IMG/VR virus record: IMGVR_UViG_3300044635_001707
Coordinates: 924 to 64,923 of that record
Source: a virus
Taxonomy: Duplodnaviria; Caudoviricetes
Reading direction: 5' to 3' (one strand)
DNA: 64,000 nucleotides
Under the pieces are notes generated by a model, which worked only from the letters and a program-made list of their open reading frames with translations, was not told where the DNA came from and ran no database searches. A program made the position numbers and the translations under genes. This document shows, one piece after another, positions 72-61,730 of this stretch (its first letter is position 1; each line of letters starts with the position of its first letter).

Positions 72-154
72 ACACGGGGGGAGGAATCGAACTCTCCATT
101 CATTTAACGTCCGCACCTAAGTGACCGACGGTTTTTCCATTAAACTACCCCGCG
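72..154 (-). ncRNA. tRNA-like element with aberrant anticodon arm (pseudo-tRNA or tRNA mimic)
   Basis: Minus strand: acceptor CGCGGGG/CCCCGTG, TA, D-arm GTTT-AATGGAA-AAAC, T-loop GTTCGATTC; anticodon arm CGTCGGTCAC-TTAG-GTGCGGACG is non-canonical. Confidence 0.55.
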
Positions 155-16183: not shown

Positions 16184-17326
16184 ATGAAAGATTTGCAAAA
16201 AAGACAACAAACTTTAATCAATTTAATCACCCGTGTAGGTGGTCGTCAAAACATCCAGAAATGGATGGACGAGATTTTGAAAATTGATATTAGGTTGGAG
16301 GCTAGGACGATGTTTACATACAAAGGTTATTCAATTCTTGAAGCTGGAGACGAAGCCGGATTGCATTTCAACGGCAAAAAAGTACAGACAGACCTAGTGG
16401 CTGTCTACCGGATTGATGAGTTCGTAGAATTGTTAGATGAACATGGTTTAAACTGGGCTGCCCGCCTTCGGGCAGAAGAAAAAGATCCAACAAAAGAAAA
16501 ATTAGAACCGACAAATGAAGAGCTGATAATTTATCAACAAAAACGTCAGCATCAACAGATGCTACAAGATAGCTTTGACAACAACGAATGGAAGCTTCAA
16601 TGGCGGGAGGTTTTTGTGGCTCAGACCGGAACAGCCACGGAGCGAATTCCTGTCTACAAGCATCCAGCTTTTAGAGAAAGACACAACCTCACGATAACCC
16701 ACGAAGAAGACGCGCAAGCATGGCTCGCTGCGTCAGTAGCTAGACGTGAAATTCAGCAACTAAATGAATCACGATTTAAATTGTGGGTTGATCACCACTT
16801 CTGTGGTGGTATTTTTGAATCTACAGATGATGAATATTCTTATGAAAAATGGTGTCAAATGGAAGACATCATTAACGAAAACGATTATTATTCTACTTCA
16901 CCTGAAGTAGAGAAAGCCAGAGCCTACCTTACTAAATACAAGCTTCAAGGTGAAGCTGATGAAGAAAAAATTAGACAAGAAAAAGATAGGCAAATAGACG
17001 ATAATTATCGTCTGGCCACAGAAAAAATCTTCGGCATCCCTGGCATGAAGCCAGAATACTTGGAAAGAATGCGATACGGAATATATCTCCTTGGCGGCGA
17101 CAAGGGACGGAAATATCGTTACGCCGACTTTAGTGGTGAATACTGCTACAACCACATTCAAGTGTGGCATCAAAGCAGACCTATTTCTGGTGTTGACGAA
17201 ATAACACCAGAAATGATAAGCAACGCAGCTGATTATTGCAGGGAAAAGGGATATTCAGACTACAAAAAAGCTAGAGAGGGTAAACCTGTTAAATCCTTCG
17301 AGAAATGGCTACAAACCGTAGCCTAG
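16184..17326 (+). CDS. Hypothetical protein
   Basis: Long ORF after promoter; start uncertain. Confidence 0.7.
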   Translation: MKDLQKRQQTLINLITRVGGRQNIQKWMDEILKIDIRLEARTMFTYKGYSILEAGDEAGLHFNGKKVQTDLVAVYRIDEFVELLDEHGLNWAARLRAEEKDPTKEKLEPTNEELIIYQQKRQHQQMLQDSFDNNEWKLQWREVFVAQTGTATERIPVYKHPAFRERHNLTITHEEDAQAWLAASVARREIQQLNESRFKLWVDHHFCGGIFESTDDEYSYEKWCQMEDIINENDYYSTSPEVEKARAYLTKYKLQGEADEEKIRQEKDRQIDDNYRLATEKIFGIPGMKPEYLERMRYGIYLLGGDKGRKYRYADFSGEYCYNHIQVWHQSRPISGVDEITPEMISNAADYCREKGYSDYKKAREGKPVKSFEKWLQTVA

Positions 17327-17382
17327 CCCACCTGATGAGTCCGGCTGGCGACCGGACGAAACACTCCCTTGAGTGTCGTGGG
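17327..17382 (+). ncRNA. Hammerhead ribozyme type I (HH1)
   Basis: Stem I CCCAC/GTGGG, CTGATGA, stem II GTCCGG/CCGGAC, GAAA, stem III CACTC/GAGTG, GTC site (cut after 17377). Confidence 0.95.
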
Positions 17383-17409
17383 AAGCCGTTACATACCCAC
17401 TGGAAATCT

Positions 17410-17655
17410 ATGACCACTTACTCTTTTTTATCCCAAGAATTAAACACACAACTCGGTATCGTTGCCGATGTTATCATCGCCGACGATGAATGCCACGAGA
17501 TCACCCTTACTCAGGGTGATCACGTGATAGCCGCAACGATAGACCCTTTAACTTTGATAGGATTATTTCAAATGGGAGTCAAAGTCTCCCTTTTAGACAC
17601 TGAACTCACGGAAAATCAGAAGGCAGGATTGATGTATTCTTTAGTCTTAGACTAA
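17410..17655 (+). CDS. Small acidic protein flanked by two hammerheads
   Basis: ATG at 17410 just after HH1; the longer ORF-track start runs through the ribozyme. Confidence 0.7.
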   Translation: MTTYSFLSQELNTQLGIVADVIIADDECHEITLTQGDHVIAATIDPLTLIGLFQMGVKVSLLDTELTENQKAGLMYSLVLD

Positions 17656-17670
17656 AGGCAAACTTTGTAG

Positions 17671-17726
17671 CCCACCTGACGAGTCCGGTTGGCAACCGGA
17701 TGAAACTACCACCTGGTAGTAGTGGG
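17671..17726 (+). ncRNA. Hammerhead ribozyme type I (HH2)
   Basis: CCCAC-CTGACGA-GTCCGG..CCGGAT-GAAA-CTACC/GGTAG-TA-GTGGG; stem III covaries with HH1; cut after 17721. Confidence 0.93.
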
Positions 17727-17752
17727 AAGCCGTTACACCCCACTGGAGAAGG

Positions 17753-18049
17753 ATGAACAAAGCCTTAGAGCGTCCGCTTAAATGGCATCAAGAAAAATTC
17801 TATGCCATGAGGGAACAACAAGTAAGATGCTACCTGTTGTTCCAAATGACAGAAGACGGGGAGGAGCATAACCGCTTCTTCCCATACACAAAAGAAGGAC
17901 ATAAAGCCGCTTTAGCCTTAGCCAAGAAGCTAGGGCAAAGACCAGATCGAATTCAAGCCACCACCGAGAAACTGAAATGGATTCTACCCTACGGAGTGCG
18001 CTCCGTAGAAGATTACGAAAAATGGTGTAAAGAGTGGGGTGTCGCCTGA
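17753..18049 (+). CDS. Hypothetical protein
   Basis: GGAG RBS after HH2. Confidence 0.65.
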   Translation: MNKALERPLKWHQEKFYAMREQQVRCYLLFQMTEDGEEHNRFFPYTKEGHKAALALAKKLGQRPDRIQATTEKLKWILPYGVRSVEDYEKWCKEWGVA

Positions 18050-18276
18050 TGTCCTACCGCTTAATGAAATACGCTTACGCGGTAGGCAATAGTATCATAG
18101 GCTACTCTGACAAAAACACAGTCAAAGTAGCTGGGGAAATAAATCCCCAAGGGGCAGACTGGTACACCGTCACAACGCCAGTTACCTGGTGTTGTGACGG
18201 TGACCTGTTTAAGGGTGATGATGGGGAAATCATTGCCCGTCGGGAACTAGAGAAAAGAATGGGATGGAATAAGTAA
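18049..18276 (+). CDS. Hypothetical protein
   Basis: TGATG-coupled to upstream ORF. Confidence 0.6.
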   Translation: MSYRLMKYAYAVGNSIIGYSDKNTVKVAGEINPQGADWYTVTTPVTWCCDGDLFKGDDGEIIARRELEKRMGWNK

Positions 18277-18453
18277 ATCAAAAGCGATCGCCCCTCCGAC
18301 CAAGAAGTAAGCGATCGCCTATCACACCAATCATGATGAGATTAGTGAATTATATCCTAGTTGCCGTCATTTTGATCATATCTGCTAGGGATGATCAGAC
18401 AGGTGATTGCCTGAAACGCGGCGACTGCAAAGCAAACATTACACAAAAAACAA

Positions 18454-18822
18454 ATGAAAGGAATACTATGGGGCGTGCTACAAACGCCCCTGTCCACACC
18501 CCGACGTTACCCATTGGGAACGCCACACCACGTCACACTCCAGTTCGGGGTTGACCGCGACGACTGGAAACACCTAGAGGGTGTTGTTTTCCAAGCTACG
18601 GCTAAATTTGAAGCCTGGAATGACAAAATTCAGGCTGTAGCTCTAACGCTACCAGGTGACATCCCCTGTCAGAACGCTACCCCTCACATCAGTGTAAGCT
18701 GGTGCGAGGGCATCAAGCCCTATGAGTCAAACCTGATGCTTGCGTCGGATTTTCACTCAAAGTCGCTGTCCCAAACACTAGAATTCAAAATCGAATTCCT
18801 AGCCTGGGAACAACCAGAGTAA
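18454..18822 (+). CDS. 2H phosphoesterase (cyclic phosphodiesterase superfamily)
   Basis: Two HxT/S motifs: HHVTL and PHISV, followed by KPYESN. Confidence 0.8.
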   Translation: MKGILWGVLQTPLSTPRRYPLGTPHHVTLQFGVDRDDWKHLEGVVFQATAKFEAWNDKIQAVALTLPGDIPCQNATPHISVSWCEGIKPYESNLMLASDFHSKSLSQTLEFKIEFLAWEQPE

Positions 18823-18864
18823 CACAGGCATCCTGCCTGTCTCATCCACACAAAAGGAATCACA

Positions 18865-19266
18865 ATGAACGTCTACTTCTTCTCCCGACACGAACCCCAC
18901 CCCGAAATGATTGCAGACTTAGGTGCAATCACCCAGCAATTTACAGGAACAATTTCCAGTATTGTCCGCGATGGCAATACTATAAAATTCCTAGAGACCC
19001 CACTAGGTCAGACCGATGCAGTCAGCCACGGCATACCCTCTGACTGCATCGTAGTGGCAGTTGCGCCGCTCCCACTACAAGAAGCATGGCTGAAAGCCGG
19101 GGCGACGTTTCTCGTCCCACAGAACAAGCGAGAAAAAGACCCCGACGGTCAATTTACTTTTAAATATTCAGGACTACTCAGGGTTCTAAAAATCGAAGTA
19201 ATCACGGAACAATGGGCAGGTGCATCGCCCAGTCTAGAAGACAAGCACCGAGAAAGAAGCGCGTAA
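18865..19266 (+). CDS. Csx16/Csx20-like putative ring nuclease
   Basis: N-terminal YFFSRH, D.IVVAVAPLPL...W..AGA.F, C-terminal R....DG...F.Y as recalled for Csx16/Csx20. Confidence 0.5.
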   Translation: MNVYFFSRHEPHPEMIADLGAITQQFTGTISSIVRDGNTIKFLETPLGQTDAVSHGIPSDCIVVAVAPLPLQEAWLKAGATFLVPQNKREKDPDGQFTFKYSGLLRVLKIEVITEQWAGASPSLEDKHRERSA

Positions 19267-20232: not shown

Positions 20233-23200
20233 CTATCTACCGTAGGGATTACCGCGATTAATCGAGCCACCAACTCGCATTTCCCGACGGATGCCATCAG
20301 ATACCATTGCCTGTACAGCCTGGGATAATCTGCGAGTATCAACCTCTGAATCACTGCCTACCGCCACACTTACAGGTACATTAATAGTCGTTGTGTTCCC
20401 CATTCTAGAAGCAATAGTGCCGTTGCCACCAGTACCAACAACGCCACCGTTAGCAAATCCGGCAACGCCACCTTGCAACTTGTTCCAAATAGCAGTTTCT
20501 TTGTGATTCAACACACGCTCACCCTCAGATGCAATAATGACGTGAGGTACTCGTCCGGTGAGCGATCGCTCTTTATTCAACGCTCCCACTATACCGCCGT
20601 TGGCAAAAGTTGGCAATTCTCCCACCATGCCACCAGCGAAAGCCATATTAAAAGAAGTATTGGGAAGCACGTCACCAACGAAAGAGCCGCCCGAAGCCAA
20701 CCCCGCTCCCTTGCCACCAAACAGTCCTGCGACCCATCCAAACAAAGAGTCAGTCATTCGCTTAGATGCGATATCAGCCAAAGAATCAATGAGGTTTTTA
20801 GTGATGGAATTAAATAGATCGGTTAAAGATTCACCAAAGCTTTTCGTGCTTAACAAGAACTCTTTAAATCCATTCCTGAAGCCACTCGTGGTATTCTTGA
20901 TGACAGAAGCTAACTCAGAAAATTGCAATTTAATTGCATCTAGTTTGTACTCATTTGTTAACCGCAGATTTTCACGCAATTCATTAATCTGTTCATTGGT
21001 TAATCTATTTGCCTCAGTCGCCAACTTGTTCTTCTCAATAAAATCTTCTAGTTGAATACTAGCCTTATCAAATTCCATTCCTTGGCTGCTGATAGCAGAT
21101 TGCTTATCTAATTTTTCAGCACTGAAATCTAGTCCATAGCTTTTCAGCAGAGAACTTCTGGAGTCAGAAACACCTTTGATTGAATCTTGTAAATACTGCG
21201 CTCTTTCTAAGAGTTTATTTTGGAAACTAGTATTTTCATTTATTTTATCAAGGGATGTTTTGAGCTTTATAGTTTTTTCCGTTAGAAGATATTCTTGTTC
21301 TGCTATCTCTAAACGTTTCTGCATCCTTAATTCGTCTATTTGTTTGGTTCTAAGTAAATCGGCGATAGCAGTTTGTTTTTCCTTGTATTGAATTTCGTTA
21401 TTCTTTAAAGCAATAGCATTTTCATTGTCAGCAATCTTGTTAAACTCAGGATTGAGAGGATCTAATGTTTGCAAAACCTTCAGTTGCTCTATCTTTTTTT
21501 GCTCAATATCAAGAGATGACCTAGCATCTTGTACGTCCAATCCAAACACCCTAATAACTTCGTCTCCCTCGCGTTTATCTTTAAATGCGGCAATCATGGC
21601 TGGGATATTTGCATTTAACCGTATTAAGGCTTTTGTATTAGCAATAAATTGCAGTGCATTAACTTGCGCTGTCTTACTCATCAGTTTACTTACGTCATTC
21701 CTAATTTTAGCATCATCGGGGAACTTCTTAACCAATTCAACATCAATCAAACGTTTAATGACAGGGTTTTGATTTTTAAGAGCATCCCCAGCATCACGAA
21801 TGCTCTTTTCATAGCCTTCCCTTTTTTTCTGAAGGGATCTTTCATAGTCAGCAGCCTCTAGCTCCATTCTTTTCATCGGTGACATATATGGAGACAGCCC
21901 CTCCTCGATGGTCTTTGTGCTATCTAGCTCCAAGTCTGCGATACCACTAAGAGCTTGATATATATTTTCAGTAGTTTGTTGTATTAGACGATAAAGGTCT
22001 AATTGTTGTTGCAGTTTTTCTGTGTTTGCTTGCGCTAAGTAATTAAGATCATTAGCCACATTTTTAACATTTTCTGTTTGTCCATAAAGTTCGGCAGCAT
22101 TGCTTATGATTTCTTGAAGTTTGTCGGGTTCTAAAGCCTTACGATTTATGACAGCATTGTCAAGTTTTTTCGATTCTAATTTGGCATTAGGATTAACAAA
22201 TTCTACTACAACAGGTTTTACTACAACAGGTTTTTTATTTTCATTTCGGTAAATTGGTGATCCATCTGGCGGAGCAGTATTAAACAATGCTTTTTCTTTC
22301 AATCTTCGTGCAGTCAAAGCATCAGCTACATTTTTGCTTACCCGGTCTGCTTTATTTAATTTTGCAAACTCATTAGCTGCCGCAACGTAGTCGCCAGTAT
22401 TCAGTTTAGCTAACAAAGCACTTCTTTTTAAAGCACCTTGTCCAACATTAAAGGTTAAAGAAGTTAAAGCGTCTAATTGATTTACGTTAAGCGGAACTTT
22501 AACTAACCGCTTAACTTGATTTTGTGCATCTAGTAATTCCTGATTCAACCGCTTAGTAGCTTCAGTTCGAGATATTCGTTCACTCTTAGATTTTGCTACA
22601 GTTCCGTAACCAATCGAGTACTGATTGTAGTCAGAATACGCCTTGGAGCTAAAGTTTTCAAACTTCTTCACCATCTCCATTAGTCGAGAAGATAACGCTG
22701 GTGATTTAGTTTTAACTAATGGTTTAGGTTTAGGTTTAACTAATGGTTTAGGTTTAGGTTTACTAGTGGGATTAGGTTTAGGTTTACTAGTGGGATTAGG
22801 TTTAGGTTTACTAGTGGGATTGGGTTTAGGTTTACTAGTGGGATTGGGTGTCACCATTGGTGTAGCAAAAGGTGTTTTACCGGATGGTGACGTAAAAGAT
22901 CCAGTGCCTTTAAAATTACGTTTTGGATCTGTAGATAACTTTTGGAATTGCGCTATTTGAATAGGGAATCCTGGTAAACTTGCAACCTCAACCGAGTTTA
23001 TACGAGATGGTAATTTTATAGATGACTGAGTTGTAGGAGGTGTAGAAGGTGTAGGAGAAAAAGGCACAGGAGGCAAGGTAGGCACTACAAGACGTGGTCG
23101 TGACTGAGGTGAACCCAAAGCAGGTTCAAACCAATCGAGAGAACCTACAGACGAATTTCCTGTAAATAGCCTTGGCGTGGATTGTAATTTAATAGATAAA

Positions 23201-26200
23201 GAGTCAATTTTTTCCCCTATATTGTCTATTGTTTTACCTACAGATACAAAAGAATTATTAAGTGAATTAGTGGCATTAACAGCATCAGTACCTATATTTT
23301 TAGCTACTTTTTGTGTTTGGGAATTGGTGCTGTTAACACGAATATTAACAATTTCTAATTGATTATTAAATCTTTTGACTTTCTCGTCATCAAATGGAAT
23401 TATCTTACCTGGAAGACTTTGCTGTAATTCAGCAGCACGTAATTTAATAGCATCAAGGTTGTTTCTATAATCAATCTGTTGTTTTCTAAAGTCTAGTTCT
23501 CTTTTCTCAATCTCTGTGCTTTTGGAAATTATATTAATAATTCCTTCAACAAACTGAGTATAGATATTATTCCCTGCGCCTATCAATGCCTGTCTTAACC
23601 TATTTTGTATTTTTGATCCTTCAAGAGTAATCCGAGCTTTCTCAAACTCAATACTAGCTGATTGCGCTTCCCTGACCGAGGTTCTGTAATATTCAGCAAC
23701 TTGCTTAGTCTGGTCAATCAAAGCTTGCTTCATATCACGTCGGGCTTTGGCAGTCTCTAGGGCATTTTGAGTTAATGATTCACGGTCTTTCATTATGTCT
23801 TCAGTCAACTTATCGTATTCTGATTGCGCTTCGGCCAAGTTAGTGCCGCCCACCGCAATTACCTGGGCTATCTTATCAAGAGCAATCTGATTAGTTTTAA
23901 GTTTTTCTTCTAATAAAGTTCGGGAATCATTTAATCCTGCAAGTTGAATGTTTGCTAATTCAGGTGCTATTTGTTGTGATGTTCCTGCACTTGAATAGAC
24001 TTTAGATTGACTTAAATTAGACTTGGATCTATTGGCGGAAGAGGCTCTTTCAAACTTAATGTTTGCATCTTTAACAGCGTTTGTCGCTTGAGTGTAGAGC
24101 ATTTCTTCTACTGGTTTTACGTCAAATGGCTTAACTCCTGCTATTTGTTTTTTAAGTTCCTCAATTTGTCTCTGAGTCTCTTGAACAGCAGGAGTAATTA
24201 ATGCCCCTTGAATACCTTCAACTTCTCCTAAAGTTAATTGTTCTTTATATTTTTCTAGCTTTTTAAGTTGATTTTCAAGTATAGGCAATGGTGAGCCAAA
24301 ACTATCAACTAATTCTTGCCGTCTTTTGTAGAGTTGTTGAATTAATTGCTTAACTTCGCCCTGTTCTTTGCGAACTTTATCGCTAGGTAATGCCTTGCTT
24401 AATTCCACTCCTTTTTTAGTGGCATTAATTAGCTGCTTGTCAACGTCTTTTATCTCTTGAAAATTGAATGCCCGTTGCACAGAAGCTTTGATTAGTTTTT
24501 GCTGATTCTTTTTCTGAGCCTCTAAAACTTTTAGCTCATCTTCAAGTTTAATTGTACCTGCGTCAGAACCGTCACCCATGCTTAACGCAAAAGCATCAGT
24601 GGAAGATGCAGCCATGAGATTTCTAGATGCAGAAACAGCCGCCCTTCTCTCATCAATCTCTGCTTGTTTCTTCTTGATTTTCCCATCAAGTTCTTTATCT
24701 ATTCGCTGATTTTCTGGAGTATTCTCTATTTGGAAACTAGCAGCAGCTAGAGCTACAACATTCCTCATCTGTTTAGATTTGTTTTCTAGCTCTTTAAACC
24801 CAGGTGAGTTTTGTAAATCTTTAATTTCTTGGGGACTAGCACCACTGTTTTTCTTGTCTGCTATGGCCGCTAGTCTTCTTTTGTTATTGTCTTTAATTTC
24901 CTGATTAAGCTTAGATATCGCTGGGGTATTATTAAACGTATTTTGCTGTTCCGATGTTAACGGTTTTATATCAGCCATAAAGTCGCCAGGCTTACCTGTA
25001 AAGCCTTGACTAGCACCAAATTCTTTTAAGTTCTGAATATTCTTCTTCTGGTCTTCAAAATATTTTAGGATTTGTTGCTGGGCATTGGTTAAACGCGCGT
25101 TTTCCCCAAGGTCAAAATAACCTTCTAATTTATTATCTGCGATTAGTTGCTTTTGCTTCCCTGTCAGTTTAGGAGCAAACAAATCAAGAGCTTTTGTAGC
25201 GAGAACTATGGCAGCAATAAAACCACCTATTGAAACGACAATAAGACCAAGCGGACTCATTATAGCGGTAATCAATGGAGTTACCGCCATAGCAAGTCTA
25301 CCAAAAATAGAAACGGGGGCAACCGGACCCGCTATAAGAGCCTTGTTTGCGGCTATGGTTGCAGCCGTGGATACAGCAGAATTTAGAATTGAACTTAGAA
25401 CTGATATCCCAGAAGCAAAAGCCGCACCCGCACCAGCAGCACCCAAAGCACCAACTCCCACCGCATCCATGAGAGAGCCGCTCGCAGAATCGCGTTTATT
25501 CCTCTCTTTAATTGCATCATCCCACTTAAAGTCGCCACCGCCCCAAAAGCTTCTGATATCCAGTTGTATGCCTTTAGAGGGTAATGTATCCGCTAACGTA
25601 CCACCTAGCTTAGTGACACTATTCGTAGCTTTATCAAAGGAATCGGCAGTTTTTTGAACATTAGCCCGTATTTCAGTTAGTCCATTGTTTAATTCCTTGG
25701 TAGTTTTTGACAACGAATCACCCATGGGATTACTGAAGTCACCTTTAGAGAACATCAAAATACCAAAAGCTACAGCCACATGAGTTAATGCTGTTCGCAA
25801 AAATCCCATGGTTGCAGAAAATATTTTTATTCTCGCTTCACTAGCAGCCATAGCAGAACTCATGGAGGTCATCATTAGTTCAGTAGCGATTTTCATTGAA
25901 GTCATGACGCCCACAAAAGCTTTAGCTGCGCCGCCAAACATTCCTGTAACTGCACCTATGAACCCTTTAAATGCAGGAGCTAAGGCCATGACCATTAGCC
26001 CTGTACCCTGCTCAAACATGAAGACCATCGCCAGTAATTCTACAAAACCGGGAGGAATAATCTTAAAGAATCCAGAAAATACACCTTTAAGCCAATCAAT
26101 AATATTACCAGCCTGTTCTGCACCTTGAACCAAACCACCAAACATTGATGAGAAACTAAAGTTACCACCACTCATTGAGCGCATCACTGAGTCAACCGTA

Positions 26201-29200
26201 CTAAATGTGGCTACAACTGCATTCGTGACACCATCCATCATGTTTGTGATTAGGTCTTTTTCTGCACCCAGCCAATTATCGGCCACGTCCGCAGTTACAC
26301 CGATAATCATCGGCATCATGTTGGTGGCAACGGCTGTAAAGGTTGCCATTAGAAGGTTCTGCAACGAACCAAACAACACAACCAAGGGTTTTACCTTAGT
26401 CATAATCGTAGTTAGTCCAATGGCTATGGTTGCCGCAAAACCAATGGCAAATGCTTGTCCTAAAGGTATCAACGCGCCAAGTGTATTACTGAACAACGCC
26501 AAACCGTCCGCAAACGTGCCAACAAACCAGCCTAAAGTGCTACCAAGTTTGTCAGTAAATATAGTTGTAATTTCAAAACCAACATTACCCAATTTATTTA
26601 AAGCTACAACCAAGCCTCCAGCTTGATTAGCAGCAGATGCACCATAATCTTGATTCAGGACTTTAGCTACATTAGGCAAGATATCTTGAGATAAAATGCT
26701 ACCAGATGCTACTAATGCATTCATTTCAGGAACAGACACGCCCATAGACTTAGCAAATACACCCATGGCAGGCGGGAATTTCTCACCTAATTGCTGTCTT
26801 AGTTCTTCCATTGACAGCTTACCTTTTGCCAAGATTTGTGTATACGCCATGAACACCAAACTAGCATCTTGTCCACTAATGCCTAATGCACTTAAAGATG
26901 CCGTAATACCCTCAAACAAATCCTTGACACCCTGTCCTTCCATCTTGCTACCTCTAGCCGCAATAGCTAATTGAGAGTAGGAGTTGGCAGCAACTTCAGA
27001 AGGGACATTCATTTTGGCGGCTACGTCTTTAGCATACTTAAATTCCGCTTCACCACCAGCCTTTGAACCACCCAAGAAAGTAAAGCGTCGCTGTAAAACT
27101 TCTACTCGCTGGATACCATCTAGCATCTTGGATATGTGAGGCATCACCATACTCACAGCCGCACCTATACCACCAATAATCGGAGCTAAGGGTAAGAATA
27201 GGGGCGATAGAGAAGCGAATAAACTTGTCACGGGGGCTAAAGTTGTGGCAAGAGACCCCATGAATTGCAGCATATTGGGGAACATTGCATCAGCTTCTTT
27301 TGAACTGCTAAACAGAGCTTTTTTTACTCCTGTTCCCATCTGGTTGTACATTTCCTTAAACTGGTCTTGGGTAGCAATTGTACCGCGAGTCATTCTTCTG
27401 AAAATCAAGCCGACAGCATCGCCAAAGTTAGCTTGTCCTATTGCTTTCTTAGCGTTGTATTCTAAATCATCCTTGGCATTAGCAAGATTACGCACTGAAT
27501 CTTTAAATCCTTGAGTCAGTGCCTTACCCATATCAAAGCCCTTTTCCTTAAACTTAGCTTGTAATCCGGTCAGGGTAGCCATTAGTCCTGCTGTGGCTGT
27601 GTTTAAAAGTTTAGGGTCTATGTTCTGGAGTTGCTCCGACGACATCCCAGCTTTTTTCAAGCCTTGCATCAATAAACCTTTCAGTGCTTCTTGGTCATTG
27701 GTTGCATAAGCTTGTGTGAGTCTACCAACAACTCCGGTAGTATTAGGATTAGCAGCTAAATCACGGCGTGTTTCCTCTAGTTTTCCCGACTGCTTCATAG
27801 AGGTGTAATCTGAGAAAGTTACACCGCGCTCTTTTAATACCTTGGCTGTCAGGTAGTCTAGTCGCCTTTGCGCTCTGGGAACACCAAGCTTAAACCTGGA
27901 GCGTTCAATATCACCCATTGCAAACATGAGGTTTCGTTCATTTTCAGAGATTGCAAGGGGTTTACCGATAATATCTTGCCGTGCCTTCTCCAGTTCCTCC
28001 CTTGACATGGCTTCACGAGTAGTAGTATCAACGCCACGTCTTCTTAATGCGGCTTTAGTTAATGCATCTAATCTTTCTGGTGATATTGTTCCAGACTTCA
28101 TAGCACGCTCTAAGGCTTTTTCTGTCTTACTTCTTTGTACACCAATGGAACTAATAACATCTGCTATTTTCCCTGATTGCTTGTTGATACTACGTCCTGT
28201 CATTCCTTGAATTACAGAAGTAGGAATCATGGGAATATTGAGATTTTCTAAAACACTATCTACCGCAGTGTTACCTAAATTTTCAATCAATTCTCTACTA
28301 GCTTGACCGCCTTTTGCATTGGACAATCCCGCTTTTTTCCTATTAGCTAAAGTCTGTTCTTGCAGGACTCTTTCAACAGTAGGTGCTTGATTCTTGGGGT
28401 TAGATCGTGTAGATGGGTCTAGTCCCAAGATTCCACTAAAGGTATTCATCAATGGACCGAATAACCCCATAGCAAGAGAAAGTGGACCACCAATACCCGC
28501 AGTACCTACAAGATTAGGTACAGGATTCATTATTTTAGAAATTGCGCCCAATATTCCGTGAGCTTTCCCACCAGATAAAGAAGTTAAGTTAATCCTGGTA
28601 ACAGAACTTAATAGCTTTGTTAAAAACCCACCTGGTTTTAAAACATCATTATTGAGTAGATTCTTAACAATAGAATTACCCAGTCCTAACGTTAATCCCC
28701 CAATTATGGGCATCAATGGCTTCAGCATGGGGATTAGCTGCATTGTTTTAGGAATAAACTTCATAAACCAAGGCAATGCAGACTGAGCTTGAGACAGCAA
28801 TCCTTTGTAAAGCGGTTGTTTTAAGGTATCAGCGAGGGAAAATAGAGCGGCGTTTACAGCATTACGCATTACCTGCCCTAATGAAGCATAGCCGGATAAT
28901 GTACTTTGCCGAATACTATCACCAACTGCGGTAAATAAATTGGTGACTAAGTCCTTACCTAGTTGTAAGTATTGATTCGTTGCGTTTTGTGGCGTACGAA
29001 CTCTTATTGGTAAAAATCCGTCTGCGGGTGGTGGTGGTGGCGACGATAGGGATGGTGGTGCTGGTGGTATTGGTGGTGGTGGTGGTGATGTTGGGGCAAA
29101 GGGAGAAGGAGTGACAGCGGGAGGTTTGGCTGGTGATGCAAGTATTGGGAAAAACCCAAGCCCAGTAGGTAAACTAGGTTTGATTGTGGTAGATTTAAAT

Positions 29201-32200
29201 GGTTCAGGAACAAGAGAGGTAGAGACCGTTGGTGGCAAAACAACGGGAAGTCTCGCCCCTACTTGTCGAGTGAGCGATCGCACTACAGAAGAGCGCGGCG
29301 CGTTCATAAGGTCATCCAAAACAGTTGCAAACCCGGTCAAACTCGCAGTCATGCTCCTATTGAGCAGAGCATTTAGATTAACCAGTAAGTCTTTGTTTTT
29401 ATTAATCAACGCTTGTGTGTTGACTTCTTGTTGTGTAATAGTTGCCCTTGCCGCAGTGCTAGGTCTGGACGGCAATATCAGTCGCGCGTCTGGATTTGCG
29501 GTAGTGCTGTTTGGCAATATTAACCGTGCATTTGGATTTACGGTAGTGCTGTTTGGTAATACTAATCGTGCATTTGGGTTGGGCGCGAAACTGCGGGGCG
29601 TAATTATTGTGCTAACAGGCTGTGGTACAACATTTTCCGTAACAGGTGAAGATTTTACATCCCTTCTTGCTTGCTGTAAAATTCCTGGTATTTCTGCCAT
29701 AGAAGCTCCAGTAATTCTAGCCATAACTTTACTAACTGTCGTGCTACTTGCTAGAATTTCCATTGCCTTAGAGGCGTTTAAGTCATTATATTTACCTTCT
29801 CTAAACCCTTTGGCAATCCTTTGATTTTGAGATTCTACTGTATTGGCGAAATGTTCAACTCTAGCTTTTTCTGATTCCGTCGCTGTAGCACTTTCATTGA
29901 CAGTTTTAAGCATTAATTCAGCAATTCTTTTATTGGCCAAAACCAAAGCTGCAACCGCACCATTTTCAAAGCCTTCGCCAAAATTCAATCCGATAGACTC
30001 CATTACCTTTGATGGTGATGCAATGCCAAATACTTTTTTGACTGCGCCTAAAACACCCTTAGCAAAACCAATTACTATCCCCAATACACCGCCGTTAGCG
30101 GATAAAAAGCCTTGCCCAAAAGAAGAGATTAGATTAATACCTACCTCTTTAAGCCCACCACCCTTACTAAATGCAGACTTAGCATTGTTGAATAAATTCC
30201 CTAAGAGGTTATTATTTCCCGTTGGCTGCTGGGATTCTTGCCCGTTGCCTAAAACGTATTCTTGGATTTTGGGATGATTTAAGAATTGCCCAAAATTACC
30301 TTTAGATGCAATATAAGGATTTGCTGCCAAATCTGTTAAATCGTCCAAACCCTTTCTGTCTAAGCGGTGTGTCTGAATATATGGATTGCCACCGATTAAT
30401 TCAGAATGAACTGAATGCCCTAATTGAAAATCATTGCCAGACTGTGTATTAAGAAAAGAAAAAAGCTCACGCCCTGTTTTTTTGTTGTATTTAGTAAATG
30501 CCTTGGTGTTACCAAATAAATTCTCTTCAATGCCTAATAAGCCTCGTAGCCATTTCTTTGACTCCAAAAATTTATATATCTTACTGCCTAAATTTTTAGG
30601 TAACTTAAACGGTGTATTTTTATCCGTATCGGTGTCTTGATGCCAGTCGTAGACATCGTTAATTTGCAAACCTCCGTCTTTGGTTTGTGTGTAATTGAAT
30701 CCCCCTAGTGTATGAGCCAGCGTGGGCAATGTCTTGTGTTTAACCATGCCCACCACGCCACCGTCAGGAAAATAACCATCACCTTTTTCGGCTGATTGCA
30801 TCATATTGAAAATAGTTGCAATTTCAGCCTCTCTAGCCAATTGTGGATTCAGCTTATGAACCTGGGTTGTACCTTGATAAAATGCCCCTAAATGCCTCAA
30901 GGGTGTTCGGATTGATTTTGGAACTAAATTAGTGTCTGCAACACCCATCATCGCAGTCCCTAGAATCATTCCTGGGATTGTCGCTTTACTTGCTTTCTTA
31001 GCATTATCAAAAACTTTTTTTGTAGTTTCTGAATTACTAGATACGGCATTTTTAATTGCCTGATCGTAAGATTCTATTCCTTCTGATGGTATTGATTTGA
31101 TATTTTTTAAACCATTGCCAACAACATCAGTTAGTAAATCACTAGCACCGGAAACATCAATTACACCTTTTTTGATTCCAATAGCCAATCCCGATGCAAT
31201 CATCAACCCCAATGCAATCATCACTTTAGATGGTGATTGAATTTCCATCTTGGCTTTAACAGCCTTAATCAAGTCGTCCAACATGGCGCGGGCAGCATCG
31301 GATACACCACCAGCAGCGTGTTGAATACCTTTCTTTAGTCCTGCATCTACTTCTATACCCAGACTTTCCGCTTGGGCGACATAGCCTTTTAATTGCTGGT
31401 CAAACAGTTTTTTGTCTGCAAGGTTTAGCTTGCCCAGACTCTTTTCTGCGGTGCTTGTATTTCTGGAAATACTAGACTTACCACTGCTATGAATCCTAGA
31501 TAATTCACTGTTAATATCTTTACTGAAACCCGCGTCTTGTCCAGTTTTTACATATCTATCAATAGTAGAAATTGCTTCTTTTGACCTGGATACAAAATTA
31601 GAAACCTCAGACCTTGCGGCACTGATATCTTCTTTTGTACCAGCATCACTGATGGCATATTTAACCTTTGCCTGAATCCTCTTGTACTCATCGCTGAAAT
31701 ATTTGTTTATTGCTATCAGCGACTGTTCAATACTATCCAAAGAAACCTGAGTATATTTCTTGGTATTTTTAGACGATGGAATAGAAGGTAATGGTGTTAA
31801 ATTATTTTCTGATTTTGTGGCGTTTTTATAGCCTTCAGATATATCAATATTTTTATGTATTTCAGATTGAATTGTTTTAAATAATGGCTTAATTTGCTCA
31901 GGAATATTTACAGGAATAGGCTCTAATTCCCGTTTTTGTTGAGGTGGTGGTAATGGAGATTTGTTTGCTTTAGGTGGCAGTTGCTTAGGTAGGGGTGCCG
32001 CATCTTGCCAAGGGTCTGAGATTGTTTTAGCAACAAAAGGTTTACTGGTTTTTGCCGTAGGCTCTGTTGACTTAACACTAACAGCAGCATCGCTCAACGC
32101 TTTAGCCGCATTTTTTAAATCTGATGCGGCTTCCTTGAGAATATCTGAAGAAGATTTAGCGATTGGTTCTACTGGTTTTGCCGACACTCCAGTCTTTAGA

Positions 32201-33579
32201 AAATCTTTAATAACTGGAGAAGCATTAGGCAATAATCTATTAAAAATAGACTCTACTGCTTTTTTTGATTGTGAAGCTATCCCTTCTCCAATATATTTAT
32301 TAACTGCACCTTTATCGCTACTTTCAGCAGCATCGAAGAATCCACTAATAGCATTTTGAACCCCAGGTGCAGAATTTTGAGTGACCGCTTTAGCGGATTG
32401 TCTAGCTTGTCTAATGGTTGCTAATTTAGCATTTTGAGCAACGCTTTCAATAGTGACATTAATGCTGTCAGAGAACGCCTTGTTTATCTCCGAAAATGTA
32501 CTAGAAATAACTCCGGAATTACTTTGTTTTATTGAACTGCCAGAATACTCCTTAATAGCATCCTCAATGATTGCCTTAACCCTAGCCTGCTCATTTTTGG
32601 GGTCTGATTGTGCTTTTTTGCCAACTCCAAAATATCTTAACGCACTGCTACTAGCTATCCTACTAGCACTTTCAAAGTCTACACCTATATCATCATTAGC
32701 GGCACTCCTGGTGGCTCTTCTACCCCTAGTGCCTTTTTCTACCCTACTATCATGAGTTCTAATGAACGCATCCATTCCATCTTTGAAAATAGCCTCAATG
32801 CGCTTCTGTTCATTCTTAGGGTCTGATTGTGCTTTTTTGCCAACTCCAAAATACCGTAAAAGCATATTTCCAGACATTCTAGTCATGTCATCCATGCTTA
32901 CACCAATAGTATCCTCAATGCTGCTATTGATACCTTTAGTCAGTCTTTTCCCCACATTCTCGAAAGCACCATCAATAATGGAACGCATGGGACTAGCAAC
33001 CACATCTACCCGTTGAGCTTTACTAGAAGATGCGCTGTCTTTTTGTGCTTGCTGTTGAGATGATGCAACGGAAGACTCACTTACAGCATCTCTAACAGCA
33101 CTTTGAACAGCATCGGTTAAGCTCTTTTCTAACTGTTTGCTTAACTCAGATTCAACGGTAATAGTAATAGTTTTATTTGATAATTTCCCTAATCTTTCTT
33201 CTAGTTCATCTAGTTTAGTAACATCAGTATTAACAACAATAGGATTATTATTAAAATATTTGTTAACCTCTTTAAGGTGTTGTACTTTAAGATTTAAATG
33301 TTTGTTTAAATCTGTTAAACTATCGTCGTCAACGTTAACAACAATAGGATTATTATTAAAATATTTGTTAACCTCTTTAAGGTGTTGTACTTTAAGGTTT
33401 AAATGTTTGTTTAAATCTGTTAAACTGTCATCGTCTACATTAATTTCTAAATTAATCTTCTCAAAAGTTTTTTCAATAGAACTTGCAGCCTCATAGGCTT
33501 TCTTCTTAGCTTGTTCCAAGGATTTTTCTAGCTGTGCAGTATCAGCACACAACTCAACAATTAATTCACCTAAATTCAT
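20233..33579 (-). CDS. Giant tail tape measure protein with GH24 lysozyme domain
   Basis: Tape-measure motif QILAKGKLSMEELRQQLGE, IASPSKVM motifs, lysozyme FENF..AY.D..SIGYG..NQLDALTSLTFNVG..LTARR..EKALF, C-terminal FANGG; follows tail chaperone. Confidence 0.9.
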   Translation of the reverse strand: MNLGELIVELCADTAQLEKSLEQAKKKAYEAASSIEKTFEKINLEINVDDDSLTDLNKHLNLKVQHLKEVNKYFNNNPIVVNVDDDSLTDLNKHLNLKVQHLKEVNKYFNNNPIVVNTDVTKLDELEERLGKLSNKTITITVESELSKQLEKSLTDAVQSAVRDAVSESSVASSQQQAQKDSASSSKAQRVDVVASPMRSIIDGAFENVGKRLTKGINSSIEDTIGVSMDDMTRMSGNMLLRYFGVGKKAQSDPKNEQKRIEAIFKDGMDAFIRTHDSRVEKGTRGRRATRSAANDDIGVDFESASRIASSSALRYFGVGKKAQSDPKNEQARVKAIIEDAIKEYSGSSIKQSNSGVISSTFSEINKAFSDSINVTIESVAQNAKLATIRQARQSAKAVTQNSAPGVQNAISGFFDAAESSDKGAVNKYIGEGIASQSKKAVESIFNRLLPNASPVIKDFLKTGVSAKPVEPIAKSSSDILKEAASDLKNAAKALSDAAVSVKSTEPTAKTSKPFVAKTISDPWQDAAPLPKQLPPKANKSPLPPPQQKRELEPIPVNIPEQIKPLFKTIQSEIHKNIDISEGYKNATKSENNLTPLPSIPSSKNTKKYTQVSLDSIEQSLIAINKYFSDEYKRIQAKVKYAISDAGTKEDISAARSEVSNFVSRSKEAISTIDRYVKTGQDAGFSKDINSELSRIHSSGKSSISRNTSTAEKSLGKLNLADKKLFDQQLKGYVAQAESLGIEVDAGLKKGIQHAAGGVSDAARAMLDDLIKAVKAKMEIQSPSKVMIALGLMIASGLAIGIKKGVIDVSGASDLLTDVVGNGLKNIKSIPSEGIESYDQAIKNAVSSNSETTKKVFDNAKKASKATIPGMILGTAMMGVADTNLVPKSIRTPLRHLGAFYQGTTQVHKLNPQLAREAEIATIFNMMQSAEKGDGYFPDGGVVGMVKHKTLPTLAHTLGGFNYTQTKDGGLQINDVYDWHQDTDTDKNTPFKLPKNLGSKIYKFLESKKWLRGLLGIEENLFGNTKAFTKYNKKTGRELFSFLNTQSGNDFQLGHSVHSELIGGNPYIQTHRLDRKGLDDLTDLAANPYIASKGNFGQFLNHPKIQEYVLGNGQESQQPTGNNNLLGNLFNNAKSAFSKGGGLKEVGINLISSFGQGFLSANGGVLGIVIGFAKGVLGAVKKVFGIASPSKVMESIGLNFGEGFENGAVAALVLANKRIAELMLKTVNESATATESEKARVEHFANTVESQNQRIAKGFREGKYNDLNASKAMEILASSTTVSKVMARITGASMAEIPGILQQARRDVKSSPVTENVVPQPVSTIITPRSFAPNPNARLVLPNSTTVNPNARLILPNSTTANPDARLILPSRPSTAARATITQQEVNTQALINKNKDLLVNLNALLNRSMTASLTGFATVLDDLMNAPRSSVVRSLTRQVGARLPVVLPPTVSTSLVPEPFKSTTIKPSLPTGLGFFPILASPAKPPAVTPSPFAPTSPPPPPIPPAPPSLSSPPPPPADGFLPIRVRTPQNATNQYLQLGKDLVTNLFTAVGDSIRQSTLSGYASLGQVMRNAVNAALFSLADTLKQPLYKGLLSQAQSALPWFMKFIPKTMQLIPMLKPLMPIIGGLTLGLGNSIVKNLLNNDVLKPGGFLTKLLSSVTRINLTSLSGGKAHGILGAISKIMNPVPNLVGTAGIGGPLSLAMGLFGPLMNTFSGILGLDPSTRSNPKNQAPTVERVLQEQTLANRKKAGLSNAKGGQASRELIENLGNTAVDSVLENLNIPMIPTSVIQGMTGRSINKQSGKIADVISSIGVQRSKTEKALERAMKSGTISPERLDALTKAALRRRGVDTTTREAMSREELEKARQDIIGKPLAISENERNLMFAMGDIERSRFKLGVPRAQRRLDYLTAKVLKERGVTFSDYTSMKQSGKLEETRRDLAANPNTTGVVGRLTQAYATNDQEALKGLLMQGLKKAGMSSEQLQNIDPKLLNTATAGLMATLTGLQAKFKEKGFDMGKALTQGFKDSVRNLANAKDDLEYNAKKAIGQANFGDAVGLIFRRMTRGTIATQDQFKEMYNQMGTGVKKALFSSSKEADAMFPNMLQFMGSLATTLAPVTSLFASLSPLFLPLAPIIGGIGAAVSMVMPHISKMLDGIQRVEVLQRRFTFLGGSKAGGEAEFKYAKDVAAKMNVPSEVAANSYSQLAIAARGSKMEGQGVKDLFEGITASLSALGISGQDASLVFMAYTQILAKGKLSMEELRQQLGEKFPPAMGVFAKSMGVSVPEMNALVASGSILSQDILPNVAKVLNQDYGASAANQAGGLVVALNKLGNVGFEITTIFTDKLGSTLGWFVGTFADGLALFSNTLGALIPLGQAFAIGFAATIAIGLTTIMTKVKPLVVLFGSLQNLLMATFTAVATNMMPMIIGVTADVADNWLGAEKDLITNMMDGVTNAVVATFSTVDSVMRSMSGGNFSFSSMFGGLVQGAEQAGNIIDWLKGVFSGFFKIIPPGFVELLAMVFMFEQGTGLMVMALAPAFKGFIGAVTGMFGGAAKAFVGVMTSMKIATELMMTSMSSAMAASEARIKIFSATMGFLRTALTHVAVAFGILMFSKGDFSNPMGDSLSKTTKELNNGLTEIRANVQKTADSFDKATNSVTKLGGTLADTLPSKGIQLDIRSFWGGGDFKWDDAIKERNKRDSASGSLMDAVGVGALGAAGAGAAFASGISVLSSILNSAVSTAATIAANKALIAGPVAPVSIFGRLAMAVTPLITAIMSPLGLIVVSIGGFIAAIVLATKALDLFAPKLTGKQKQLIADNKLEGYFDLGENARLTNAQQQILKYFEDQKKNIQNLKEFGASQGFTGKPGDFMADIKPLTSEQQNTFNNTPAISKLNQEIKDNNKRRLAAIADKKNSGASPQEIKDLQNSPGFKELENKSKQMRNVVALAAASFQIENTPENQRIDKELDGKIKKKQAEIDERRAAVSASRNLMAASSTDAFALSMGDGSDAGTIKLEDELKVLEAQKKNQQKLIKASVQRAFNFQEIKDVDKQLINATKKGVELSKALPSDKVRKEQGEVKQLIQQLYKRRQELVDSFGSPLPILENQLKKLEKYKEQLTLGEVEGIQGALITPAVQETQRQIEELKKQIAGVKPFDVKPVEEMLYTQATNAVKDANIKFERASSANRSKSNLSQSKVYSSAGTSQQIAPELANIQLAGLNDSRTLLEEKLKTNQIALDKIAQVIAVGGTNLAEAQSEYDKLTEDIMKDRESLTQNALETAKARRDMKQALIDQTKQVAEYYRTSVREAQSASIEFEKARITLEGSKIQNRLRQALIGAGNNIYTQFVEGIINIISKSTEIEKRELDFRKQQIDYRNNLDAIKLRAAELQQSLPGKIIPFDDEKVKRFNNQLEIVNIRVNSTNSQTQKVAKNIGTDAVNATNSLNNSFVSVGKTIDNIGEKIDSLSIKLQSTPRLFTGNSSVGSLDWFEPALGSPQSRPRLVVPTLPPVPFSPTPSTPPTTQSSIKLPSRINSVEVASLPGFPIQIAQFQKLSTDPKRNFKGTGSFTSPSGKTPFATPMVTPNPTSKPKPNPTSKPKPNPTSKPKPNPTSKPKPKPLVKPKPKPLVKTKSPALSSRLMEMVKKFENFSSKAYSDYNQYSIGYGTVAKSKSERISRTEATKRLNQELLDAQNQVKRLVKVPLNVNQLDALTSLTFNVGQGALKRSALLAKLNTGDYVAAANEFAKLNKADRVSKNVADALTARRLKEKALFNTAPPDGSPIYRNENKKPVVVKPVVVEFVNPNAKLESKKLDNAVINRKALEPDKLQEIISNAAELYGQTENVKNVANDLNYLAQANTEKLQQQLDLYRLIQQTTENIYQALSGIADLELDSTKTIEEGLSPYMSPMKRMELEAADYERSLQKKREGYEKSIRDAGDALKNQNPVIKRLIDVELVKKFPDDAKIRNDVSKLMSKTAQVNALQFIANTKALIRLNANIPAMIAAFKDKREGDEVIRVFGLDVQDARSSLDIEQKKIEQLKVLQTLDPLNPEFNKIADNENAIALKNNEIQYKEKQTAIADLLRTKQIDELRMQKRLEIAEQEYLLTEKTIKLKTSLDKINENTSFQNKLLERAQYLQDSIKGVSDSRSSLLKSYGLDFSAEKLDKQSAISSQGMEFDKASIQLEDFIEKNKLATEANRLTNEQINELRENLRLTNEYKLDAIKLQFSELASVIKNTTSGFRNGFKEFLLSTKSFGESLTDLFNSITKNLIDSLADIASKRMTDSLFGWVAGLFGGKGAGLASGGSFVGDVLPNTSFNMAFAGGMVGELPTFANGGIVGALNKERSLTGRVPHVIIASEGERVLNHKETAIWNKLQGGVAGFANGGVVGTGGNGTIASRMGNTTTINVPVSVAVGSDSEVDTRRLSQAVQAMVSDGIRREMRVGGSINRGNPYGR
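22715..22850 (-). repeat. Tandem 24/21-bp repeats encoding PNPTSKPK / PKPLVK linker
   Basis: Directly visible repeats N-terminal to the lysozyme domain. Confidence 0.9.
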
Positions 33580-60536: not shown

Positions 60537-60953
60537 ATGACTTTTGTGAAACCAACACTACCAAATAAAACAGTTAAAAAATACGATAAAGTCCTATTCG
60601 GTAGTGGGTCTAGCCGCCCCTACAGTCCGTATACTCTACTTACCAACGTAACTGTCACCACAAAGGATACACGCAGTACAGGAACAGTTAAATTCAATAT
60701 TTCTGGCACGTTGCCAGATGGTAGAACAATACAAACAGAAGGATTTTTCTACAAGAAAGGGCGCAGTCCTTGGAAGTTCAGCGGTGCTGGTCTAGCACCA
60801 TTGGAATATTCCGGTGGTATGTTAAGTCACTGCCAGGATGCAGTGCATTTTATGTTTGAGCCTGGAGAATGGGATAGGTCTTATCGCTACAAATTCCCTG
60901 AAACGCTTGTAACGGATACATGGTCTGCCAAGCAGACGTGGCAAGAATGGTAA
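60537..60953 (+). CDS. Hypothetical protein, first gene of ribozyme-punctuated operon
   Basis: AAGGAG RBS after promoter at 60477. Confidence 0.7.
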   Translation: MTFVKPTLPNKTVKKYDKVLFGSGSSRPYSPYTLLTNVTVTTKDTRSTGTVKFNISGTLPDGRTIQTEGFFYKKGRSPWKFSGAGLAPLEYSGGMLSHCQDAVHFMFEPGEWDRSYRYKFPETLVTDTWSAKQTWQEW

Positions 60954-61009
60954 GCCGAAACGGGAGCAATCCCGTCCGCACAGGATGACAACCTGCGCGC
61001 TGACGAGGC
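60954..61009 (+). ncRNA. Hammerhead ribozyme type II (HH3)
   Basis: GCC-GAAA-CGGGA-GCAA-TCCCG-TC-stem I (CGCACAGG..CCTGCGCG)-CTGACGA-GGC; cut after 60976. Confidence 0.88.
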
Positions 61010-61028
61010 AAGTTAAAGGAAGGAGAAT

Positions 61029-61256
61029 ATGAAAGCACTAGAAAGACCTGCGTACATAGAGTACGCACGACTAAAAGCCTCCCAGCTGGGAGAAGAAGGT
61101 CGCGTCAAAAGACAGATCAAGTCCAATCCAAAACTTGCGAAGTTCTGGAACTTGGGACACAGTGCCGTTGTCCCCAAGTCATTCCCCTCACGGGAATGCG
61201 AAATAGCCTTTTTACTTGGGCAAAGAAACGCCCAAGCATCCGACATGGATGAATAA
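61029..61256 (+). CDS. Small protein between HH3 and HH4
   Basis: AAGGAG RBS. Confidence 0.7.
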   Translation: MKALERPAYIEYARLKASQLGEEGRVKRQIKSNPKLAKFWNLGHSAVVPKSFPSRECEIAFLLGQRNAQASDMDE

Positions 61257-61257
61257 C

Positions 61258-61313
61258 TCCACCTGATGAGTCCGGCTGGCAACCGGACGAAACACTCTCT
61301 TGAGTGTCGTGGG
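61258..61313 (+). ncRNA. Hammerhead ribozyme type I (HH4)
   Basis: TCCAC-CTGATGA-GTCCGG/CCGGAC-GAAA-CACTC/GAGTG-TC-GTGGG; cut after 61308. Confidence 0.95.
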
Positions 61314-61340
61314 CAGCCGTTACATCCCACTGGAGAATTT

Positions 61341-61641: not shown

Positions 61642-61697
61642 CCCACCTGATGAGTCCGGCTGGCAACCGTCCGAAACGCTCCACTGAGTGTCGTGGG
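61642..61697 (+). ncRNA. Hammerhead ribozyme type I (HH5), two mismatches in stem II
   Basis: CCCAC-CTGATGA-GTCCGG/CCGTCC-GAAA-CGCTC/GAGTG-TC-GTGGG; cut after 61692. Confidence 0.8.
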
Positions 61698-61730
61698 CAG
61701 CCGTATAATTACACTGGATAAACTAAATTA

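Follow-up and report, generated by a model that had tools for sequence, protein, structure and literature searches.

A downstream complement of stem I as a candidate decoy strand beside type I hammerhead ribozymes of a Caudoviricetes virus

We analyzed a 64,000-nucleotide stretch of viral DNA (Duplodnaviria; Caudoviricetes), positions 924 to 64,923 of IMG/VR record IMGVR_UViG_3300044635_001707, which is called the window here. Its source, a 64.9-kb virus record, carries five hammerhead ribozymes (HH1 to HH5), all on the plus strand, four of type I and one of type II. In three of the type I copies the 3' strand of stem I, GTGGG, is followed after a short spacer by a second CCCAC, just ahead of the ribosome-binding site (RBS) of the next gene. 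We refer to the 5' strand of stem I as P, to its 3' strand as Q and to the downstream complement of Q as P'. In the reading that we favor, and to which we assign a probability of about one half, P' is a selected decoy of P that acts after cleavage, capturing the new 5' end in a flush hairpin so that cleavage becomes irreversible and the downstream message is shielded. The evidence consists of the complementarity itself, its conservation across variable spacers, its co-variation with stem I in other lineages and its enrichment at this position.

The downstream complement in the window and in relatives

A preliminary description of this DNA had placed GTGGG, 12 or 13 nucleotides and then CCCAC in HH1, HH2 and HH4, with TACAC instead in HH5, and reading the sequence directly we found these coordinates to be exact (Table 1). 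In HH1, HH2 and HH4, Q can pair with either P or P', so that pairing with P' is mutually exclusive with the hammerhead helix; in HH1 the end of P' lies ten bases from the ATG. The same description had the 3' cleavage product begin with a hairpin next to the RBS, which agrees with the predicted folds, in which the first base of the product already belongs to the hairpin stem. The minimum free energy structures place it at base 1 with -6.4 kcal/mol in HH1, -6.9 in HH2 and -6.7 in HH4, which would qualify all three as 5'-terminal stem-loops (hairpin start within about 0-2 nucleotides of the 5' end), and HH5 has none. Bases 1-5 of the predicted HH1 product have pairing probabilities of 0.97-1.0; in the HH5 product the first five bases are paired with a probability of only 0.02-0.45. 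The copies in the window are paralogs of one module and their agreement is therefore not independent. The window alone cannot separate a decoy from chance or shared ancestry, and support comes from homologs only.

We gathered relatives by scanning public sequence collections for the catalytic core and loop II, with stem I and the 3' flank left free in every search pattern; the metagenome relatives were taken from among the matches listed, and all family counts below rest on this sample. After removal of duplicates the final set holds 147 distinct hammerhead-plus-flank sequences from 88 contigs. The closest clade comprises 37 distinct copies on lake-type viral contigs, all with GTGGG as Q. CCCAC is kept in 34 of the 37, across 18 distinct spacers of 12-20 nucleotides. 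A G-U wobble occurs in P in 9/37 of these copies, whereas P' is a perfect match in 34, is broken in 3 and never has a wobble.

Outside this clade Q itself varies, and the downstream word varies with it. On one contig (L048/L276/L277), seven paralogous hammerheads with a common downstream context have GTGGG, GCGAG or GCAGG as Q, and a word 5-9 nucleotides after Q pairs with the copy's own Q in 7/7 cases and with a paralog's different Q in 0/22. Two other contigs give own against cross matches of 2/2 vs 0/2 (L272) and 2/3 vs 0/4 (L273). A check of covariation across homologs, which the preliminary description had proposed, comes out in favor of a downstream word that varies in step with stem I outside the closest clade. 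When flanks were permuted within contigs (14 contigs, 47 hammerheads), 15 own matches were observed against a mean of 9.71, a value reached in 176 of 20000 permutations; with Watson-Crick pairs only there were 9 own matches against 5.0, reached in 386 of 20000.

The wider pseudoknot-type family has a 5-base-pair match in 54 of the 147 distinct copies and on 29 of the 88 contigs. We used 5-base-pair helices with swap nulls as the criterion for the decoy, in place of exact 4-mers. By this measure 7/36 clusters are majority-positive (binomial P 0.008; swap-null rate 6.5%) and 10/36 contain any positive (binomial P 8e-5). The excess depends on position, a match being found in 53/141 copies at +3 to +34 compared with 15/141 upstream and 13/141 far downstream, a 3.5- to 4-fold difference. 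Pairing of product bases 1-5, compared with shuffles in which the pseudoknot partner was held fixed, lies above the shuffles in 28 and below them in 9 of 47 clusters (sign test P 0.0026). Judged from sequence comparison, the decoy is not universal in the pseudoknot-type family, yet it is enriched, four tests giving P of about 0.01 or less; the significance is moderate, and relatedness is corrected for only in part. Two other measures gave little: exact 4-mer matches were at chance level (10-11/28 clusters vs 5-6 for a composition control; this control, the complement word, is unsound for GTGGG and overlaps with the ACACCCAC motif), and the first energy test, with full shuffles, was weak, only 2/28 clusters reaching P <= 0.05. 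In a MAFFT alignment of 17 product leaders the P' columns are out of register, and the decoy helix does not enter the counts of structure pairs given below.

Some copies without a separate decoy (Q = GGCGA or GGCGG; for example L055, L081 and L168) have first 3-4 product bases that can pair with the pseudoknot partner. This pairing spans a 4-nucleotide GNRA-like loop, as in GGC-GAAA-GCC, and changes together with Q in L284, which has five hammerheads; it may represent a compact version of the 5'-end hairpin.

In eight copies of the closest clade (L006:2573, L021:175, L031:2645, L008:5744, L063:958, L115:1753, L032:2512 and L102:802) the hammerhead and decoy are followed by no open reading frame (ORF) but by AT-rich sequence containing TATAAT or TTGACA-like words. 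A transcription unit may end at the ribozyme in these copies, shortly ahead of the next promoter.

Proposed action after cleavage and competing explanations

In the sequence of events that we propose, the RNA would fold during transcription, with P:Q and the pairing of loop II with AAGCC forming first, as the order of transcription suggests, and HH1 would then be cleaved after C17377. The 5-base-pair stem I would open and the new 5'-hydroxyl end, GUGGG, would pair with P'. In the resulting hairpin the first base of the downstream message would already be paired, the pseudoknot partner would lie within the loop, and the 3' side would stop immediately short of the RBS. Such a hairpin would be expected to block re-pairing and re-ligation, including joining to the next hammerhead with the same stem I, and to give the RBS a fixed context. 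It would also furnish the type I product with a hairpin flush with its 5' end, a feature inherent in type II and type III products; consistent with this, the predicted fold of the product of HH3, a type II hammerhead, opens with its own hairpin at base 1. Protection by a 5'-terminal hairpin against ribonucleases that depend on the 5' end is established for ompA-type leaders, and the hairpin formed by P' would shield the message in the same manner. The likeness to an ompA-type leader lies in a hairpin flush with the 5' end; the difference is that here the end would be ribozyme-made (5'-OH) and the stabilizing effect is putative.

More tentatively, phage type I hammerheads could contain a programmed two-state switch in which the decoy gives rise to a nuclease-resistant, insulating 5' hairpin and to irreversible cleavage, with the flush 5' hairpin as a design rule. 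If true, this rule would explain why type II and type III permutations, or type I with a decoy, are found between phage genes, and the arrangement would be the equivalent in nature of RiboJ, a synthetic insulator.

A number of observations weigh against capture after cleavage. In the window, the product hairpins show no excess stability over dinucleotide shuffles (z -0.62, -0.09 and -0.27). Q is invariant in the closest clade, so there is no co-variation there and the case in that clade rests on conservation. Its three broken copies are HH5 and two in L007, and one variant spacer is common to all three. The preliminary description had linked the degenerate word to the lack of a downstream ORF, and this does not hold in homologs: a TACAC homolog (L007:10891) has an ORF 27 nucleotides after Q, and CCCAC is kept in copies with no ORF nearby. 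Conservation of the second CCCAC is strong in the closest clade and not general, since 93/147 distinct copies are without a 5-base-pair match and the largest other cluster has it in 1/30. In L191 the result is ambiguous, with 2/5 own and 8/18 cross matches when G-U pairs are allowed. The sample itself was drawn by fixed loop II patterns. Finally, a nested energy model of the uncut precursor gives the decoy and active folds -24.8 and -23.8 kcal/mol in HH1, -28.0 and -26.6 in HH2, and -30.2 and -23.3 in HH4; the decoy fold lies at or below the energy of the active fold and the decoy could therefore act before cleavage.

This last point leads to the best surviving alternative, which we consider unlikely and which is compatible with capture after cleavage: P' would compete with P for Q in the precursor and set the fraction of RNA that is cleaved, in line with the 'off-switch' of the preliminary description. 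A variant is that a ribosome stopping at the stop codon abutting the ribozyme may cover P and tip the balance. Besides the energies, such attenuation draws on the fact that P' is always a perfect complement in intact copies while P is wobbled in 9/37 clade copies, and on the stop codons, which end 0-3 nucleotides before P in 96/147 copies compared with 35/147 at a control position 8 nucleotides upstream. In HH4, moreover, CUCCA just 5' of the ribozyme (61255-61262) is complementary to the UGGAG of the RBS (61331-61336), and this pairing, part of the modeled decoy fold of the uncut RNA, could mask the RBS until cleavage. However, P' is the last strand to be transcribed, and the active fold forms before it is available; the pseudoknot and tertiary contacts that favor this fold are, moreover, absent from the energy model. 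Keeping four ribozymes in one genome would serve no purpose if they were inhibited constitutively, and there is no evidence of a regulatory input.

Somewhat less probable again is that P' has no function, CCCAC having been inherited with a duplicated hammerhead-plus-leader module or being a relic direct repeat of P, and the matches elsewhere arising by chance pairing of G-rich ends with C-rich leaders. The paralogy of the window copies, their non-significant fold z-scores, the absence of the feature from most family members, the moderate statistics (P about 0.01) and L191, whose own matches are no better than cross matches, are all as this explanation would have them. It does not account for five invariant bases amid 18 different spacers, nor for the 7/7 own and 0/22 cross matches on one contig or an excess of 3.5- to 4-fold at this position only; and P' differs from P in 9 clade copies, which argues against a simple repeat. 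An explanation of CCCAC that does not involve pairing with Q, as a protein or ribosome standby site in an A/C-rich unstructured leader or as part of the translation-initiation region, is improbable. P' does sit 1-3 nucleotides before a GGAG-type RBS in most clade copies and the spacers are G-poor, but CCCAC is kept where no ORF follows, and outside the clade the sequence of the word follows that of Q (CTCGC, CTGC, CCCGC, GCCGC), unlike a fixed binding motif. Among the 34 intact clade copies, 10 have no ORF start recognized by our filter within 60 nucleotides, at least two of which are likely filter misses with an ATG close by (L009:5341 and L115:1358); the retention of P' in copies without a nearby ORF indicates that it goes with the ribozyme and not with the RBS.

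Two further candidates were rejected. P' is not a target-site duplication, as it differs from P in 9/37 clade copies and tracks Q, and it is not the true stem I partner of a permuted ribozyme, as no CUGANGA core follows it.

Hammerhead identity, pseudoknot and known systems

The type I core, CUGANGA ... GAAA ... UH followed by the cut site, is present in HH1, HH2, HH4 and HH5, and a strict hammerhead pattern matched three times where 0.01 matches were expected by chance. At the Rfam gathering threshold there was no hammerhead match in the window. In E-value mode Hammerhead_1 (RF00163, clan CL00010) scored type I copies at 24.0 (HH1) and 26.9 bits against a gathering score of 34, HH5 reached 12.1 bits with the Rfam type I model, and HH3, of type II, reached 30.6 bits against a gathering score of 37. 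A custom covariance model (R1), built from an alignment of 53 parsed sequences (A1), gave 79.2 bits for HH1, 74.2 for HH2, 75.6 for HH4 and 64.1 for HH5. With scores of 64-79 bits from the subfamily model and below threshold in Rfam, these type I copies are missed by standard annotation, and routine annotation overlooks such ribozymes.

In A1 the three stems covary, 94.1% of cells being paired, a level that none of 500 shuffles reached. Five pairs in each of stems I, II and III vary in both partners (stem I is open in type I). HH1, HH2, HH4 and HH5 are, by these sequence features, type I hammerheads, and self-cleavage is predicted for them. The pairing of a GCC just 3' of stem I with loop II, put forward in the preliminary description, is borne out: each of the 5 loop II:AAGCC pairs shows changes in both partners, with 86.7% of cells paired, even though these columns lay outside the structure of R1. 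The pseudoknot is supported, although its class is already published (PMC3088659).

The first R1 searches covered 200 of ~266 loci, those omitted having mostly failed the stem II pairing check. In all, R1 searches of 222 loci returned 140, 22 and 31 matches, other loop II sequences included. We skipped 7 of 162 rows that were truncated, gapped or contained N, and dropped five loci (L159, L232, L260, L266 and L269) with scores of <=37 bits and no credible stems. A blastn search of 17300-18100 against an isolate phage collection gave no match.

Table 1. Hammerhead ribozymes, decoy strands and other features of the window
Feature	Position	Strand	Detail
HH1, type I with pseudoknot	17327-17382	+	core from 17332; predicted cleavage after C17377
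HH1 stem I strands	P CCCAC 17327-31; Q GTGGG 17378-82	+	
HH1 loop II bases TGGC	17346-17349	+	pair with 17385-17388 (pseudoknot)
HH1 spacer, 13 nucleotides	17383-17395	+	holds pseudoknot partner AGCCG; loop of predicted product hairpin
HH1 P', second CCCAC	17396-17400	+	perfect complement of GTGGG 17378-82
Weak Shine-Dalgarno-like TGGA and ATG (17410) of 81-amino-acid ORF	17401-17412	+	directly 3' of HH1 hairpin
HH1 upstream stop codon TAG	17324-26	+	abuts P
HH2, type I	17671-17726	+	P 17671-75; Q 17722-26; predicted cleavage after A17721
HH2 P' CCCAC	17739-17743	+	12-nucleotide spacer after Q; then GGAG, ATG 17753
HH3, type II	60953-61017	+	3' product from 60977, opens with closed stem I hairpin
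HH4, type I	61258-61313	+	P TCCAC 61258-62 (one U-G wobble); Q 61309-13
HH4 P' CCCAC	61326-61330	+	12-nucleotide spacer after Q; then TGGAG, ATG 61341
HH5, type I, weakened stem II	61642-61697	+	Q 61693-97; last element ahead of terminator
HH5 degenerate P' counterpart TACAC	61710-61714	+	terminator after, no ORF
Perfect 6-base-pair inverted repeat GGCTAC ... GTAGCC	17307-17323	+	ends one base before the TAG abutting HH1
122-amino-acid ORF	18454-18822	+	downstream of HH1 and HH2; PF08302, E 7.8e-7
4448-amino-acid ORF	20233-33579	-	single ORF
Transfer RNA (tRNA)-Val, anticodon CAC	72-154	-	near window start; Rfam 27.9 bits, just under threshold

Alternative folds switch the ribozyme off in viroid and satellite RNA hammerheads. 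Common to these and to the present case is a mutually exclusive pairing that removes one helix strand after processing; there the whole circular replicon refolds, whereas here a 5-nucleotide decoy lies beside the RBS of a DNA-phage messenger. RiboJ is a synthetic insulator in which a hammerhead and then a hairpin stand ahead of the RBS. The order of ribozyme, hairpin and RBS and a message with a defined 5' end are the same in both, but the RiboJ hairpin is a separate, added element, whereas here it would reuse the stem I strand of the ribozyme and enclose the pseudoknot partner.

Clustered type I and type II hammerheads that flank single prophage genes, many of them stabilized by pseudoknots, have been described by Perreault et al. 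2011 (PMC3088659); the part of that report covered here also describes pseudoknots in all three hammerhead types, proposes that the ribozymes cut long phage transcripts into gene-length messages, and states that no circular or spliced products were found. Like those studied here, these prophage hammerheads lie between small genes and pair loop II with bases just 3' of stem I; unlike here, no downstream complement of Q is described in that part of the report, and its supplements may list these ribozymes. In the literature searched, as far as its text was covered, we found no description of a downstream competitor or decoy of stem I. The purpose of bacterial hammerheads needs additional work to define, according to the part of a 2019 review covered here (PMC6765202). 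An accessory strand that is conserved, covaries and acts on the product of cleavage suggests that what matters to selection is the fate of the downstream message, and compact natural insulator parts could result.

Flanking genes, RNA contigs and minor observations

Searches of 10 flanking ORFs against Pfam and PHROGs gave no family except a 2H phosphoesterase, the 81-amino-acid ORF behind HH1 having no Pfam family. The exception is the 122-amino-acid ORF (Table 1), which matches the 2H cyclic phosphodiesterase domain of tRNA ligase. The 2H family to which it belongs acts on 2',3'-cyclic phosphate ends, the kind left by hammerhead cleavage.

Three metatranscriptome runs contain contigs related to 17388-17680 and 17768-19215. 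Among the 25 RNA pieces listed (13 more are unlisted), none bridges 17377/8 or 17721/2; a loose end in X19, at 17291, could come from a contig spanning HH1, and we draw no conclusion on bridging. The preliminary description had also envisaged ligated circles. Joints of circles or of re-ligation were not seen in the three RNA runs and one DNA run, as contigs only, which drop rare forms, and their absence is thus neither support for circles nor evidence against them. In one metatranscriptome contig of run X18, the hammerhead module in front of the 81-amino-acid ORF is replaced, at window position 17408, by another leader, which has a small hairpin of its own at its end.

In the window, four of the five ribozymes start 0-1 nucleotides after the stop codon of the upstream ORF (17324-26, 60951-53, 61254-56 and 61638-40), and a perfect inverted repeat ends one base before the first of these. 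Away from the hammerheads, the minus strand carries a single ORF of 4448 amino acids and, near the start of the window, a tRNA-Val, which could be a tRNA of the phage or mark an attachment site.
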